This document shows, piece by piece, positions 37,817 through 43,829 of a stretch of DNA of 50,757 nt (position 1 is its first letter; each line of letters begins with the position of its first letter). The notes under the pieces are model-generated. The model was not told where the DNA came from. It saw only the letters and a program-made list of their open reading frames with translations, and ran no database searches. Source of the stretch: an uncultured bacterium (GTDB taxonomy: Bacteria; Patescibacteriota; Minisyncoccia; Moranbacterales; UBA2206); assembly GCA_903831805.1 (NCBI GenBank), contig CAIKZD010000006.1, positions 1 through 50,757 of the forward strand, read 5' to 3'. The translations under genes were made by a program, and so were the position numbers.

Positions 37817-38560
37817 GATTATGGTGTATAATTAATCCATGCAAAGAAAAATACCATTTGTTAATGACGAATATCACCACATTTTCAATCGCGGTACGGA
37901 TAAGCGGCCTATTTTTCTTGACCAAGCTGATTATGAAAGGTATCTAATATCAATGTATTTTTTAAATACGCAAGAAGGAAATTTGATGGCTAAATGGCGA
38001 GATTTTAAGAGGCTTAATCGCGCGGCTAGAATTTCTGATTTTAAAATTATAAAACCGGAAGAAAGGTTGGTTGATATTATTTGTTATTGCCTTAATGAAA
38101 ATCACTATCATAAAATTTTAAAACAACTCAAGGATAAGGGAATAGAAACATTCATGCAAAAACTGGGAACGAGTTATGCAATGTATTTTAATAAGAAATA
38201 TAACCGAGTAGGGGCTCTTTTTCAGGGTCCATTCAAGTCTGTTTTCATAGATTCAAATGAATATTTTTTGTACTTATCAGTTTATGTTAATGCTAATAAT
38301 TTTATCCATGACTACAAAAGATTCCAAGGCGAGGCCTTGGGAATTTCCCAAGGCCTCGCCTTGGAATCTTGGCAGTATTGCAGCTTGCCGAATTATTTTG
38401 GACAAAGAGATGGAGTGTTGTGCAATATGAAGCCTATTCTTGATCAATTTAAGAACATTGAAGAGTATAAAGAATTTGTACAGAATAATGCTTTGTATTT
38501 AAAGGATAAAAAAGAATTGGAAAAACTTATCTTGGAATAGTATCCTAAGGCCTCGCCTTG
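37801..38560. mobile_element. RAYT locus: tyrosine transposase gene between perfect 19-bp inverted REP copies
   Basis: caaggcgaggccttaggat at 37801-37819 and its reverse complement at 38542-38560. Confidence 0.8.
37839..38540 (+). CDS. REP-associated tyrosine transposase (Y1_Tnp, IS200-like HUH)
   Basis: YHHIFNRG, YCLNENHYH (HUH), YFNKKYNRVGALFQGPFK, YVNAN. Confidence 0.88.
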   Translation: MQRKIPFVNDEYHHIFNRGTDKRPIFLDQADYERYLISMYFLNTQEGNLMAKWRDFKRLNRAARISDFKIIKPEERLVDIICYCLNENHYHKILKQLKDKGIETFMQKLGTSYAMYFNKKYNRVGALFQGPFKSVFIDSNEYFLYLSVYVNANNFIHDYKRFQGEALGISQGLALESWQYCSLPNYFGQRDGVLCNMKPILDQFKNIEEYKEFVQNNALYLKDKKELEKLILE

Positions 38561-38607
38561 TTTATTTGTTTAAAATACTTTATTTAAGCCAATAAAATCA
38601 CAATCAC

Positions 38608-38636
38608 TGGACAGAAATCCAATTTGGGTGTATAAT
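38608..38636 (+). promoter_or_regulatory. Sigma70-type promoter for the DGR target gene
   Basis: TGGACA-17 nt-TATAAT; GAGGAG RBS before ATG 38724. Confidence 0.6.
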
Positions 38637-38723
38637 ACTATATTATTTTCAAATGCGAAGATAATCCCTGACCCCAGGGCGAGGGGTGGAAAATTGGGCG
38701 AATGAGCCTGAGAGGAGACAGTC

Positions 38724-39644
38724 ATGGGAGATGTGAAAGAAGTTCTTGAAAAATTAAGGGGCATAGATGCGTCTAAACTGCTTGCCGTGGTTGATTTGTT
38801 CGGAAGCAGGGAAATATTAGAGGCGTGTCTGCGTGGCGAGAAAAGGATGACATTGGAAGATGTTATTCGAAAACTTTTCGATCACACCGGCCGTTGCATC
38901 CCGCAACATCTTGGCATAACGAAAAAAGCATGTGACGAGAATCGTGATTTTCACGTTGAATCTTCTATGCGGTATTATGCGACAACTCACGAGCGACTGG
39001 TAAGTTCTTTTCCAGAAGGAACAGAATTTCTTTCAGCAGAAGAATTTGAAAGAAATGCGGAAACGCTCAAGGCAAAATGCATTAGTCATGAACTGATTGG
39101 AAATTTTTTCCAGCGTGCTTGGCCAATTCTTCTGCCTAAACATGATGCGCGAGAGAACTATGGTGCGTCAATGCAGGATTTTATCTTGCCGGCAGTTAAA
39201 GACGCGTATAGAAGGCAGTTTCCCGAGCGAAAATTCACAAATCATCGCGACGGAGAACTGGCCGAAAAAGTTTCCATCATTTCGGGCACCGGTCATGACG
39301 AAGTGGTATCGCTGATGGCTGAAAAATCAGTCGTGGCGTGGTATTCGCCAAATCCATTTCAAGGATTTTCAATTTTCGCCCAGCGCGAAGCGATGAAAAT
39401 TCTGGTACAATATGGATTTTCGTTGGCTGGCGGGGTGGATACGGGAGTTGCAGCTGTTGCCTATACGGGTGAAATGGCGCGCGACTACAAAACGCCGGCA
39501 TGTACATGCAGTGCCATTTCTTGGCGGTCCGCTGACTATTCGCTCCACTTCAACGCGCATGACGACGAGTTCCGCTTCGGCAGCACTGATAACTTGGCTG
39601 ACGCGAATGACCTCAACTCGGGCGGTCTTGTCCTCTTCAGGTAG
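38724..39644 (+). CDS. DGR target protein (C-terminal VR, presumed C-type-lectin-like fold)
   Basis: Last 42 codons are the VR; no signal peptide or TM seen. Confidence 0.9.
   Translation: MGDVKEVLEKLRGIDASKLLAVVDLFGSREILEACLRGEKRMTLEDVIRKLFDHTGRCIPQHLGITKKACDENRDFHVESSMRYYATTHERLVSSFPEGTEFLSAEEFERNAETLKAKCISHELIGNFFQRAWPILLPKHDARENYGASMQDFILPAVKDAYRRQFPERKFTNHRDGELAEKVSIISGTGHDEVVSLMAEKSVVAWYSPNPFQGFSIFAQREAMKILVQYGFSLAGGVDTGVAAVAYTGEMARDYKTPACTCSAISWRSADYSLHFNAHDDEFRFGSTDNLADANDLNSGGLVLFR
39516..39642 (+). repeat. DGR variable repeat (VR)
   Basis: 127-bp ungapped match to 40028-40154 with 9 mismatches. Confidence 0.95.
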
Positions 39645-39714
39645 CGCCGTATTTTGTACTTTGGAACTTTTTCTCTTGGACTGGAACTTTGGTTTTGGTC
39701 TTTGGGAGAAAATG

Positions 39715-39746
39715 GGAGATGTGAATTATATTCTATTCACATCTCC
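39715..39746. other. Hairpin/cruciform downstream of the VR (candidate DGR homing element or terminator)
   Basis: ggagatgtgaat-tatattct-attcacatctcc, 12-bp stem followed by Ts. Confidence 0.65.
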
Positions 39747-40027
39747 TTTTATTTTTGCAAAAAATTTGATAGACTAATTTTGAGAGTAGGCTAATGCACA
39801 ACAGTTTACGCCTGCCTGCCGGTAGGCAAGGATTGTTGTCGCCGAAATTCTATGATTTTCATAGAGCATCAGAATCTTGAGATTACGATTTGCTATTTTT
39901 TCAGATCGCAAGAGTGCATGCGAAGATTATAGGCGCTACTTATTTCTTTTCAGCGCTCACTAGGGGCGGAATAAAATTCAGTCTCGTATATTTTTTGCGA
40001 GGCGGTGCAATGGACGAAAAGGAATAA

Positions 40028-40154
40028 ATTTCTTGGCAGTCCGCTGACTATTCGCTCAACTTCAACGCGAATGACGACGAGTTCAACTTCGACAACACTG
40101 ATAACTTGGCTGACGCGAATGACAACAACTCGGGCGGTCTTGTCCTCTTCAGGT
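40028..40154 (+). repeat. DGR template repeat (TR)
   Basis: AAC-rich; every VR mismatch lies at a TR adenine. Confidence 0.95.
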
Positions 40155-40165
40155 TGCGCTTAAAA

Positions 40166-40192
40166 AAGAGTCCTGATTTTTTCAGGACTCTT
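40166..40192. terminator. Hairpin between TR and the convergent avd gene
   Basis: aagagtcctga-ttttt-tcaggactctt flanked by A and T runs. Confidence 0.65.
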
Positions 40193-40197
40193 ATCTT

Positions 40198-40548
40198 TTA
40201 GTTGAAAGATTTTTGCCAGCCACCAATCATCCGGCCGATTTCTTGGATTTGTTTTTGCAGGGTTAGATATTTTTTATTGTCTAGCATATTGATTTCATTG
40301 GCTAGGCGGATGAAAATTTTCAAAGTGTCGAATTTGATATTCGCTTTTCGGATGTAAGCAATCTTTTCCGGCTTGGGCGCACTGCCGGCGGCAATTAATA
40401 ATTCCAATACAGACAGAATATATAGTTCGCATTTTTCTCCCAGTGTGTATTTATCTTTTTTGGGAAATAATTTAGAGTAGGCATAGAAACTTTTATACAG
40501 CTCGTAAACTTTTTTAATAACCGGTAAATTATTATTGTAATCACTCAT
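40198..40548 (-). CDS. avd: DGR accessory variability determinant (bAvd-like four-helix bundle)
   Basis: 116 aa, basic; LPVIKKVYELYK, FPKKDKYTLG, EIGRMIGGW. Confidence 0.88.
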   Translation of the reverse strand: MSDYNNNLPVIKKVYELYKSFYAYSKLFPKKDKYTLGEKCELYILSVLELLIAAGSAPKPEKIAYIRKANIKFDTLKIFIRLANEINMLDNKKYLTLQKQIQEIGRMIGGWQKSFN

Positions 40549-40552
40549 AAAT

Positions 40553-41627
40553 ATGTACGATAAATTAGTTAGTTTAGAAAACATTTTTATTAGTTGGAAA
40601 GAGTTTAAAAATGGCAAGCAGAGTAAGCCTGATGTCCAATTGTTTGAAAGATTTTTAGAGGATAATATTTTCGCTCTTCAAAAAGAGCTACAGGATTATA
40701 CTTATTGTCACGGCAAGTATAGAACATTTTTCATCCAAGACCCGAAACCAAGAATGATCAGCAAGGCTATTGTCAAAGACAGACTAGTGCATCACTTGGT
40801 GTTCAGGGAGCTTTATGCTGTTTTCAATTCTTCTTTCATTTTCCATTCATATTCATCTAGAGAAAAGAAAGGGTCTCACGCGGCTGTCAAAAATCTTTCA
40901 AAATGCTTGCGTAAAACAAGCGAGAATTACAATCATCCAGTCTATATTCTGAAATGCGACGTTAGAAAATTCTTTCAAAGCATGAATCACAAAAAACTTC
41001 TAGAGTTGATTGAGTGCAAAATTTTTGATAAAAATTTTTTGTGGTTGATTGAGGAGATAATAGGGAGTTTTTCTTCTGCTCCTCTTTCAACTTTGCAATT
41101 TACAGAAAATCCCTGGGGGGGGGGATTTAAAGGGCGGAAAAAATGAAAAAATAGGTTTGCCGATCGGCAATATTACTTCGCAAATTTTTGCCAACATATA
41201 CCTTAATGAATTGGACTGGTTTATAAAAGGAAAACTAAAAGTAAAAAATTATTTCCGTTATGCCGATGATTTTGTTATTGTCCATCCCAATAAGAGATAT
41301 CTTTTGGATACCTTGGAAGAAATTAAAATCTTTTTAAAAACCGAATTGAGTCTTCAGCTTCATCCGAAAAAAGTTTCTATTGGGAAATTTCATCGAGGTG
41401 TCGATTTCTTGGGCTATGCTTTGTTCCCTCATTATAGCGTATTGCGGACCAAAACTAAAAAAAGAATGTTTAAAAAAATATCGCTAAAACAAAAGATGTG
41501 TCGCGAGGGATTAGTTTTTAAAAAATCGCTCAATCAAAGTGTGCAATCGTATTTGGGGGTATTGAAACATTGCGAAGGATATGGAATAAAAAAAGAATTG
41601 GGTGAACTAATTCGCAGGAAAATTTAG
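40553..41627 (+). pseudogene. DGR reverse transcriptase, split by a frameshift at a G10 tract (41115-41124)
   Basis: ORF 40553-41146 (KDRLVHH, SYSSR..KGSH, KCDVRKFF) and downstream frame (GLPIGNITSQ, YADD, DFLGY). Removing one G fuses them into 357 aa. Confidence 0.9.
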
Positions 41628-41638
41628 TGATATTTAAG

Positions 41639-41691
41639 GCTAAATCAAGGCGAGGCCTTGGGAAATTCCCAAGGCCTCGCCTTGATTTAGC
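41639..41691. repeat. REP doublet (53-nt palindrome) of the RAYT family
   Basis: 26-bp perfect arms containing caaggcgaggccttgggaa. Confidence 0.85.
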
Positions 41692-41702
41692 TGTCCAGTC
41701 GT

Positions 41703-43829
41703 TTATTCCAAATGAATATGCTCGGAAAATTTTTGCAAAGCATCCGCCAGGGGCGGGTGTTTTTTTAGTTGGGGATCAACTTTCAAAATCGCAGACGCTT
41801 CTTCTTGCGCGAATTTGATGAGTTTTACGTTGGTCAGATTTTCCATAGTGATGTCGGGGAGGCCGGACTGGACCACGCCGAAGAATTGCCCTGGGCCGCG
41901 CAGTTTCAAATCGGCTTCGGCGATGACAAAACCGTCATTGGTTTTTTCAAGGGTGCGCAGGCGTTCGGATTTTTTCTGACTGAAGAGGAAGCAGTAGGAT
42001 TGATGCGCTCCGCGGCCGACGCGACCACGGAATTGATGCAATTGCGAAAGGCCGAAACGTTCGGCGTTTTCAATAATCATAATGCTGGCGTTGGGAATGT
42101 CCACGCCGACTTCCACGACAGAAGTGGAAACTAAAATATCAAATTCTCTATTTTTAAATTTTTGCATGACCTCCTCTTTTTCTTTCGGTTTCAATTTGCC
42201 ATGCAAAAGCCCGAGCTTAAATTCCGGAAAAACTTTTTCTGACAGTCTTTGATGCTCGGTCGTGGCCGCTTTTACTTCGGCCATAGTGGCGGAAAGCGAC
42301 TCATCAATCAAAGGAAAAATAATGAAAACCTGACGGCCCTTTTTGATTTCGCTTTTGATGAGGGCATAAATCTTATGATTTTCCTCCGGTGCGACGACAG
42401 TGGTGATGATTGGTTTCCGATTTTTCGGCATCTCGTCCAAGATGGATAAATCTAAACTGCCAAAGAAAGCGATGGATAGAGTTCTGGGAATGGGCGTGGC
42501 AGTCATAGTGAGGAGATGGGGGATAGTTTTTTTTGCGCCGTCATTGATGCTGGCGGTTTCTTGTTGTAAGGCGGCACGTTGGGCCACGCCGAAGCGATGC
42601 TGTTCGTCGATAATGACTAGAGCCATATTTTTAAAAGCCACGTCTTTTTGAATGAGAGCGTGAGTGCCGATGATTAGGTTTATCTCGCCTGATTTTATTT
42701 CGTCTAATAATTCATCTCGCTTAATGGCCAGTGCCAAAAAATCGGAGCTCAACTCCGAATCGGAGTTGAGCTCCGATTTTTTGTTTAAAAGCTTATATGA
42801 ATTGGTTAAAAGCGCGATATTAAAATCATAATCTTTGAATAACTCACAAAAACTCTCAAAATGTTGTTTGGCCAGCACTTCTGTTGGGGCCATGATGGCC
42901 ACTTGATGACCGGCGGAAACAACTTGCAGGGCCGCGACGGCCGCGACGACGGTTTTACCGCTGCCGACGTCGCCGTTCAAGAGGCGATTCATGGGCTGGG
43001 GCTTTTCCAAATCTTTCAAAATTTCGAAAGTGGACTTGCGTTGCGCATCGGTCAAAGTGAAGGGCAATTTTTTCACGAAAGATTGGATTAATTTTTCATC
43101 GAAAACTATGCTTAGTGATTTTTTGCCGGCCCAATCCTTTTTGATTTTTTGCGTCTGCAGTTGTACCAAAAACATTTCTTGAAAAGCCATGCGTTTTTGG
43201 GCGCGCAACAATTTCTCACGCGACTCGGGAAAATGCAACTCCGTAAGGGCGGTGAAAATATCATACAGATGATATTTTTCACGCAGCTCGGCCGACAAAA
43301 CATCCGGCATCTCCCGCGCCGCCTCTAACAATATTTTGATCTGCCAGCGCAGCCATTTAGAAGTCAGGCCCTTGGTCTCGGGATAGATCGGGACGAGACA
43401 GCCAGTGTTGGTGGCATCACGGGCGGATCTTTCCCAGGCCGGGTTACTCATGGAGAAAACATCATCATCCATGGATAATTTTCCAGAGAGCCGGATGGTT
43501 GATCCGACAATCAAGCTATCTAAAATATACGACTGGTTGAACCACACCGCTTTCATTTCAATCTCATTATCGTCCATAATAAAAACTTCTGTGATGGTCA
43601 TCCGTTTTTTCCAGGTGCGGATATTTTTGGCTTTGATTATGCGCCCTTCTATGGTTACGGTTTGTTCGAGGTATTCTTCCAAGAGGGCAACGGTCCGGCG
43701 AAAATCATCATAGCGAGCCGGCAAGTGGAACAGCAGGTCGCGTACGGTCAAAAGCCCCAACTTGGCCAGAGCTTGGGCATATTTCGGCGTCACGCGCGGC
43801 AGATTTTTGAGAGGAGTGTTGAGAGACAT
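41703..43829 (-). CDS. recG: ATP-dependent DNA helicase RecG
   Basis: MNRLLNGDVGSGKT, DEQHRFG, MTATPIPRTL, ERFGLSQLHQFRGRVGRG, DLKLRGPG. Confidence 0.96.
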   Translation of the reverse strand: MSLNTPLKNLPRVTPKYAQALAKLGLLTVRDLLFHLPARYDDFRRTVALLEEYLEQTVTIEGRIIKAKNIRTWKKRMTITEVFIMDDNEIEMKAVWFNQSYILDSLIVGSTIRLSGKLSMDDDVFSMSNPAWERSARDATNTGCLVPIYPETKGLTSKWLRWQIKILLEAAREMPDVLSAELREKYHLYDIFTALTELHFPESREKLLRAQKRMAFQEMFLVQLQTQKIKKDWAGKKSLSIVFDEKLIQSFVKKLPFTLTDAQRKSTFEILKDLEKPQPMNRLLNGDVGSGKTVVAAVAALQVVSAGHQVAIMAPTEVLAKQHFESFCELFKDYDFNIALLTNSYKLLNKKSELNSDSELSSDFLALAIKRDELLDEIKSGEINLIIGTHALIQKDVAFKNMALVIIDEQHRFGVAQRAALQQETASINDGAKKTIPHLLTMTATPIPRTLSIAFFGSLDLSILDEMPKNRKPIITTVVAPEENHKIYALIKSEIKKGRQVFIIFPLIDESLSATMAEVKAATTEHQRLSEKVFPEFKLGLLHGKLKPKEKEEVMQKFKNREFDILVSTSVVEVGVDIPNASIMIIENAERFGLSQLHQFRGRVGRGAHQSYCFLFSQKKSERLRTLEKTNDGFVIAEADLKLRGPGQFFGVVQSGLPDITMENLTNVKLIKFAQEEASAILKVDPQLKKHPPLADALQKFSEHIHLE

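Follow-up and report, generated by a model that had tools for sequence, protein, structure and literature searches.

In bacteria and phages, no natural system other than diversity-generating retroelements (DGRs) is known to target proteins for hypermutation. Host-adapted bacteria have contingency loci with poly-G/C tracts in Campylobacter, Neisseria, and Haemophilus and with dinucleotide repeats in Helicobacter. For DGRs of the candidate phyla radiation (CPR, or Patescibacteria), the relevant passages of Wu et al. 2018 (PMC5758913) report that 90 per cent of the CPR set has architecture B3, TR-(avd)-RT, in which a template repeat (TR) is followed by a reverse-strand avd gene and a reverse transcriptase (RT) gene; repeat tracts are not mentioned in these passages. 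Here, we describe an element from a 50,757-nucleotide stretch of DNA (hereafter, the window; contig CAIKZD010000006.1 of assembly GCA_903831805.1) of an uncultured Moranbacterales bacterium, whose genome assembly comprises 1,035,243 bp in 22 contigs and is 99.7 per cent complete. The element is almost certainly a chromosomal DGR of the type common in CPR bacteria, and its RT frame is interrupted, in this assembly, at a run of ten G residues (G10). Taken as a whole, the element is probably a CPR-type DGR with an on/off switch that is set by the length of this repeat.

All parts of a DGR are present, in the order target, TR, avd, and RT; avd is encoded on the minus strand, and the other three are on the plus strand. 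The target gene (38724..39644, plus strand) encodes a protein of 306 aa and ends in the variable repeat (VR; 39516..39647, plus strand), which comprises the last forty-two target codons, the TAG stop codon, and three more bases. A repeat search of the window returned one direct repeat pair, formed by the VR and the TR (40028..40159, plus strand), each 132 nt long, spaced by 512 nt and aligned without gaps at 92 per cent identity. Compared base by base, the two repeats differ at ten positions, at nine of which the TR has an A and the VR another base (TR positions 40038, 40058, 40070, 40085, 40086, 40092, 40095, 40124, and 40125); these nine differences result in seven amino-acid changes (Q>R, N>H, N>H, N>R, D>G, N>S, and N>L). 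The probability that nine of nine changes would fall by chance on the 31 adenines among 127 bases is ~1e-6 (hypergeometric). In the target frame, the 31 adenines of TR positions 40028–40154 are found within 22 of 42 codons, nine of which are AAY; twelve are at first, nineteen at second, and none at third codon positions, and no stop codon can be reached by any of the possible A substitutions. Since 9 of the 31 adenine positions are changed in the VR, homing took place in the past.

The tenth difference, T40155 in the TR versus A39643 in the VR, produces the TAG stop codon of the target opposite a TTG in the TR. The same TTG/TAG difference recurs in seven of twelve gapless pairs, the window's pair counted, and it is compatible with a boundary similar to the initiation of mutagenic homing sites (IMH/IMH*), although it is no proof of one. 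The original prediction, made from the letters of the window, had described the gapless pair at offset 512, the nine adenine mismatches with their seven consequences, the adenine and codon content of the TR, and the diverging 3' ends; our comparison recovered the same positions, changes, and counts, and with them the claim of a DGR with adenine-specific TR-to-VR differences. It had also called the DGR 'complete', which is correct insofar as every part is present but not in the sense of an element ready to work, as the RT is out of frame at G10; it had noted neither the two frames of the RT nor the opposite orientation of avd. The search for remote targets that it had proposed was run with the TR across the 1.035-Mb genome, where the TR matched only itself and this VR and no remote target was found.

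The two genes that would carry out the mutagenesis begin head to head, with the start codons of avd and RT 4 bp apart. The 116-aa product of avd (40198..40548, minus strand, opposite to TR and RT) matches PF22296 (bAvd; E-value 1.8e-20, 73.8 bits versus a cut-off of 40) and NF033474 (DivGenRetAVD; 87.7 bits versus the curated NCBIfam cut-off of 80). The RT gene is present as two parts in different frames. The N-terminal part (40553..41146, plus strand) occupies the first frame, covers positions 8–100 of the RVT_1 profile, and ends with a stop codon 19 nt past the G10 tract (41115..41124, plus strand), which is the sole run of at least eight G or C residues in the window. The C-terminal part (41157..41627, plus strand) lies in the +1 frame, starts with LPIGNITSQ, contains YADD, and covers RVT_1 positions 119–204 with 39 bits. 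Jointly, the two parts span RVT_1 positions 8–204, and a tract of G9 or G12 would be in frame. The motif [I/L]GxxxSQ is typical of DGR RTs, and here it is represented by LPIGNITSQ at 41157, in an RT that adjoins the TR region. NCBIfam has no DGR-specific RT model, and the best RT match in that collection is a group II RT, far below its cut-off.

Within either half of the RT, there is no stop codon or further frameshift. The part behind the break has dN/dS values of 0.09–0.25 versus its relatives in six of eight pairs (two pairs are saturated), which are rough estimates since dS is high and which point to purifying selection acting on the C-terminal half. Relatives with a full-length RT (346–361 aa) read through the tract loop as (RE)n or GGG in seven of the eight that were fetched. 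We considered that the split RT could be made as two polypeptides and rejected this idea, as no consistent start codon precedes the second half and full-length relatives exist.

The tract differs in length among alleles from wild samples. The 90 per cent cluster of this RT contains three products that are identical elsewhere: one of 197 aa ending in PWGGGFKGRKK (two contigs, one of which is the window), one of 192 aa ending in PWGGGI (eight contigs), and a full-length product of 358 aa that continues as PWGGGDLKGG...GLPIGN (PWGGGDLKGGKNEKIGLPIGN; three contigs). Read against the window DNA, the product ends suggest that these forms correspond to G10, G11, and G12 tracts, respectively. In contig DNA, run X1 (from 2016, and possibly the window's source sample) has the G10 tract, whereas the tract is longer by one G in runs X4 and X6 (one study, 2020), which show no other difference over ~3.3 kb; in run X5, contigs break at the tract. 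Among longer proteins, a word search retrieved no full-length RT of this strain (the best match was 70 per cent identical), and the 358-aa product was found by cluster look-up only. The tract is thus located within a reading frame and has different lengths in otherwise identical alleles, with both ON and OFF forms, as is the case for contingency loci.

Repeats at the same site are a recurrent feature of related RTs. The gene order and strands of the cassette are the same at 14 of the 31 genome loci that carry a relative of the target; a simple repeat is located at the same RT spot in 12 of these 14, none of them in frame, and the RTs of the two loci without a tract are both in frame. The repeat, which is poly-G, (GA)n, or poly-C with (CT)n, is located between ..IIxSFS.. 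and GLPIGNxTSQ. We surveyed the genome loci together with 80 metagenome RT loci, 88 RTs being scorable and seven loci lacking the N-terminal part. A tract is present in twenty-seven unique RTs (L035 duplicates the L030 record): five are in frame (L039, L045, L064, L085, and L089), seventeen need +1, and five need +2, so that 22 of 27 are out of frame. In contrast, all sixty RTs without a tract are in frame, including L049, which has a single stop codon. In ten relatives, the VR/TR pairs have 13–25 mismatches on TR adenines; relatives with an out-of-frame RT and this many adenine changes were therefore active.

In a quick maximum likelihood tree of 82 RT rows, from which L035, L045, L060, L080, and L112 (duplicate or partial) and L049 (stop codon) were omitted, the window's RT falls into a clade of 18 rows (SH-aLRT support of 100), all of which are tract-bearing (GA in ten, poly-G in five, and CT in three). 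Tracts are also found in other RT lineages, and supported branches force at least five changes of the 'no tract' label. Close relatives differ in tract length and frame: the RT rows of L030 and L036 are identical, but their tracts are CT33 and CT43, respectively, and put them in different frames, and L039 is in frame with AG20, whereas its near relatives L017 and L037, with AG18, are not.

A separate observation concerns the DNA upstream of these tracts. The sequence TGTGGATAA, which we take to be the complement of the DnaA-box consensus, is located just upstream of the RT tract, within the preceding 25 nt, in L003, L007, L011, L015, L017 (as TGTGGAAAA), L018, and L022. It is kept at the nucleotide level, including third codon positions, although these RTs are only 50–65 per cent identical, and it is found neither in the window nor in L004.

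The protein that would be diversified belongs to a family without a name. No named family was found for the target in Pfam (target and 33 family members), an NCBIfam scan, a PDB profile search, or the ESM Atlas; specifically, none of the 33 family members matched a Pfam family of the C-type lectin (CLec) type (FGE-sulfatase or DUF1566) at E ≤ 1, and all matches of the target in the PDB profile search had E ≥ 0.14. A word search retrieved thirty-seven clusters of the target family, with Moranbacteria and Parcubacteria group among the source names, and an exhaustive search retrieved 423 representatives at E ≤ 0.001 and 297 at E ≤ 1e-10, all of them unnamed. In the family alignment, the body of the protein is conserved, and the last ~40 residues are hypervariable around a fixed SWxSAxxSLxFxAxDxxLxF...SGGLVLFR.

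The original prediction had expected a CLec fold at the C-terminus, and structure prediction and search gave this expectation moderate support. In the AlphaFold2 model (mean predicted local distance difference test score of 87.6; predicted template modelling score of 0.80), residues ~110–306 are predicted to adopt a C-type-lectin/FGE-like fold. Nearly all of the fifty top rows of a VIA-align search are proteins of the CLec/FGE fold, with Z-scores of 4.2–7.1, led by the C-terminal domain of Bd2740 (8oks_B; Z = 7.1) and including PvdO (Z = 6.7) and an FGE paralogue (Z = 5.4). Two known DGR targets were also matched: TvpA with Z = 6.3 (137 residues, model residues 111–306, root-mean-square deviation of 3.6) and Mtd with Z = 5.2. 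By VIA-align's own caution, Z-scores below 8 may reflect a common arrangement; our assignment is based on the uniformity of the match list and not on individual Z-scores. The C-terminal part of the target is therefore predicted to be a C-type-lectin/FGE-like domain that carries the VR at its end. Because a simple hydropathy profile contains no membrane-like or signal-like hydrophobic segment (the highest 19-residue mean is 1.13), the target is probably soluble and cytoplasmic.

We consider it very likely that the RT tract truly exists, varies in length, and is under selection, and we hold with fair confidence that its role is that of a DNA-level on/off switch rather than a site of leaky decoding. 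As in DGRs in general, the RT with Avd would copy the TR transcript and misread adenines, and the resulting cDNA would replace the last forty-two codons of the soluble 306-aa target, giving the binding face on the predicted C-type-lectin-like fold up to ~1e18 possible forms. The slippery G tract lies in an RT loop just before the LPIGNxTSQ motif, and its length would set the frame: G12 (or G9) would yield the whole 358-aa RT, and G10 and G11 would yield truncated products. With G10, the element in this assembly would be OFF and its VR frozen, until a slipped-strand change in length restored hypermutation in a minor fraction of the cells.

Several observations weigh against this reading of the element. 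Contig DNA directly shows two lengths, G10 and G11, neither of which is in frame, and evidence for the in-frame G12 form is limited to a called protein on three contigs; homopolymer lengths of 10–12 are error-prone in short-read assemblies, so that some of these calls are perhaps artefacts. The exact target protein is encoded on 16 contigs, and the one further cluster member (one contig) differs by V204E, outside of the VR. At the consensus level, no variant of the VR appears on these 17 public contigs, nor does any appear in four runs from three studies as represented by their main contigs, although consensus contigs drop minority variants and rare VR variants may remain unseen. As one and the same VR is found on each of the 17 contigs, probably including those with an in-frame RT, there is as yet no link between an in-frame RT and diversification. 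Likewise, no switching event was observed in the runs, which exist as contigs in which minority lengths are lost. That 17 of the 27 tract-bearing RTs share the +1 state might be a signal of slippage decoding, although the loci are related and therefore provide no clean test. Finally, the fold match of the target is only moderate (Z-scores of 5–7), and a Foldseek search of the model against the PDB found no match at E ≤ 0.001. A contig of 151 nt and depth 2 in run X4, which covers positions 39546–39581 with five differences, could be either a VR variant or a relative.

The main rival explanation is leaky decoding, in which the RNA polymerase slips or the ribosome shifts frame on the G run, or on the (GA)n or (CT)n runs of relatives, so that out-of-frame DNA gives a small, steady amount of full-length RT and mutagenesis is low and always on. 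RNA polymerase does slip on long homopolymers, and leaky decoding would fit both the excess of out-of-frame tracts, most of them in the +1 state, and the purifying selection on an RT half that lies downstream of a frame break. A fixed recoding signal, however, would not be expected to occur in three frame states, with five relatives and the G12 form in frame; the repeat type varies among G, GA, and CT at one site, no conserved stimulatory element was found, and the VR is static on 17 contigs. We therefore regard leaky decoding as unlikely, even though it and the DNA switch are not mutually exclusive.

Errors of sequencing or assembly and decay of the element are less likely still. If the true tract were in frame, the RT would be intact and the element would be an ordinary constitutive DGR; homopolymers of 10–12 G are indeed hard for short reads, X5 contigs do break at the tract, and three lengths for one gene could be noise. 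However, G10 was found in the window and in X1, and G11 independently in X4 and X6 and in the product of eight contigs; moreover, the (GA)n and (CT)n tracts of relatives, which are easy for short reads, are also mostly out of frame, whereas RTs without tracts are in frame without exception. An error of this kind is hence very improbable. Least likely of all is decay, by which the RT would be a pseudogene, the DGR a dead relic, and the VR differences the result of past activity: although the RT is out of frame here, no VR variant is found on 17 contigs, and the survey PMC3521204 documents DGR RTs that are inactivated while their repeats are intact, neither RT half has stops or more frameshifts, dN/dS is 0.05–0.25, the break is exactly at a repeat site common to 27 relatives, the same gene also has an in-frame allele of 358 aa, and Avd, TR, and target are intact.

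The reading of the tract as a DNA-level switch can be extended to other DGRs of the same genome. Defined as a G/C run of at least eight residues or a CT/GA run of at least six units, long tracts number 14 genome-wide, six of which are in avd or RT genes of DGRs. The genome has at least six further avd/RT pairs (C4:138–1376, C7:8181–10245, C7:33230–34604, C17:9744–11076, C22:8066–9426, and C20:1672–2852, designated by contig and position). On contigs C4, C7, C17, and C22, runs of C9/G9 to G11 are located inside the 5' end of avd, abutting the RT start; as assembled, those on C4 and C7 are in frame, and those on C17 and C22 are out of frame. Another RT on C7 has (CT)16 at its start and is out of frame. 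Overall, two of the six tract-bearing DGRs read on and four read off as assembled. We incline slightly to the view that hypermutation itself is phase-variable in these tiny bacteria: a separate slippery repeat would be built into each DGR, either within the RT or where avd and RT start head to head, with which a lineage could diversify a given protein and then lock a useful variant, and a 1-Mb genome would harbor at least six independently switchable DGRs.

Four further tracts of the genome are in genes of another kind. Tracts of (CT)n or (GA)n, 16–26 nt long, are located directly after the ATG of open reading frames (ORFs) whose products begin with MKNL (C11:15436–15461, C14:40403–40418, C17:138417–138440, and C21:6969–6984). 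They resemble the classical contingency loci that are associated with secreted or surface proteins, in this case in the genome of a CPR bacterium. Given the six tracts in DGR genes and these four in MKNL ORFs, the organism appears to use repeat tracts widely.

Not all homologs of the target are accompanied by a DGR. At 17 of the 31 genome loci (L009, L012–L014, L016, L019–L021, L023–L027, L029, and L031–L033), the homolog has neither RT nor Avd within the fetched flanks, and among 49 neighboring ORFs at these 17 loci, no RT, Avd, or recurring partner gene was found. The neighbors are housekeeping genes, such as those for ribosomal proteins, tRNA synthetases, SecY, pilus components, and RecG. 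The C-terminal tails of these homologs still look diversified, and they may be acted on in trans by DGRs elsewhere in their genomes.

Several candidate signals surround the genes of the cassette. A promoter-like site, TGGACA-17 nt-TATAAT (38608..38636, plus strand), is located 88 nt before the target start and agrees with the consensus at 11 of 12 positions; it was identified by a consensus scan and is a pattern match only. The VR is followed by a T/G-rich stretch with repeated TTGG (39671–39713), which is similar in relatives. A Bordetella-like hairpin in this stretch was evaluated and rejected, as RNAalifold gave −1.04 kcal/mol and only one of seven pairs had a compensatory change. Next, 3' of the target gene, is a terminator-like hairpin followed by a T run (39714..39747, plus strand). 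An 11-pair hairpin between an A run and a T run (40166..40192, no strand assigned) directly follows both the TR and the 3' end of avd and has the appearance of a terminator acting in both directions; a hairpin is found at this TR/avd position in 11 of the 12 cassettes examined.

On a larger scale, the whole 3.3-kb cassette is enclosed by two copies of a perfect 39-nt palindrome, for which no strand is assigned. The left copy (38325..38363) lies in frame within a Y1-transposase-like ORF (37839–38540, plus strand; PF01797 with 22.5 bits, just below the cut-off of 23), and the second copy (41646..41684) lies to the right of the cassette, between the RT and recG stop codons. At up to three mismatches, these are the sole full copies in the genome; variants or halves of the palindrome are found at 38546–38560 of the window, C9:1–48, C9:89462, and C13:34066. 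Contigs of other runs break at the 39-nt palindromes. A paralogue of the Y1-transposase-like ORF adjoins another DGR (C7:10299–11000), and a Y1_Tnp gene is also found near the target homolog in L023. An Rfam search of positions 38000–42000 in E-value mode returned sub-threshold microRNA-like matches on the palindromes only and none at the gathering score. The cassette was not found in the 40 related genomes searched, in which only RT fragments were matched (best match, 82 per cent over 125 nt; longest match, 68 per cent over 420 nt).

The B3 layout, targets with a CLec fold, and the occurrence of DGRs in CPR bacteria are all known already; in full-text literature searches, we found no paper connecting repeat tracts with the RT genes of DGRs. 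If true, a repeat that sets the RT frame, with on and off alleles in the wild, would provide a simple and testable answer to the question of how cells keep good variants. It would also explain why such DGRs drop out of curated sets as apparent pseudogenes. In the survey PMC3521204, frameshifted DGR RTs are treated as inactivated, in the part of that survey that deals with them. Table S1 of Wu et al. 2018 (PMC5758913), as far as its entries for Moranbacteria GWA2_39_41 are concerned, lists another DGR of that bacterium as 'putatively functional' and does not list L003, the relative identified in our survey, the RT of which is out of frame. The target family would add a soluble, probably intracellular binding protein of the predicted CLec type to those of CPR bacteria.

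The element most closely resembles the CPR-type B3 DGRs, with which it shares the target-TR-(avd)-RT order, the reversed avd, the C-terminal VR, a hypothetical protein as target, and a tiny CPR genome, to the extent that these traits are described in the CPR passages of PMC5758913; it differs from them in that its RT is interrupted at a repeat tract. With the DGR of Bordetella phage BPP-1 (mtd, avd, TR, and brt), as outlined in the same source, it shares adenine-specific changes and an AAY-rich TR without third-position A; in both, an Avd partner is present, the VR forms the 3' end of the gene for a target with a CLec fold, and TR and VR differ at their 3' boundary. In contrast to the phage-borne BPP-1 element, it is chromosomal, has avd on the opposite strand downstream of the TR, and lacks a supported GC-rich hairpin after the VR; its RT has a frame-setting repeat tract, and its target is small and soluble and has no tail-fibre context. 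The predicted fold of target residues ~111–306 is similar to that of Treponema denticola TvpA (PDB 2y3c), with the variable residues in the last strands, and also aligns with PvdO and with FGE-like and EgtB domains. Unlike TvpA and the CLec/FGE proteins, the target has no sequence-family match and no lipoprotein or signal sequence, and its helical N-terminal ~110 aa, which distinguish it further from TvpA, have no known relative. In the behavior of its tract, the element is similar to the contingency loci of host-adapted bacteria, in that the length of an intragenic tract sets the frame and varies between near-identical strains, with ON and OFF alleles coexisting. However, the gated gene is the enzyme of a second diversity generator, rather than a methyltransferase or an antigen of the cell surface, and its host, an uncultured CPR bacterium from freshwater, is either free-living or episymbiotic.

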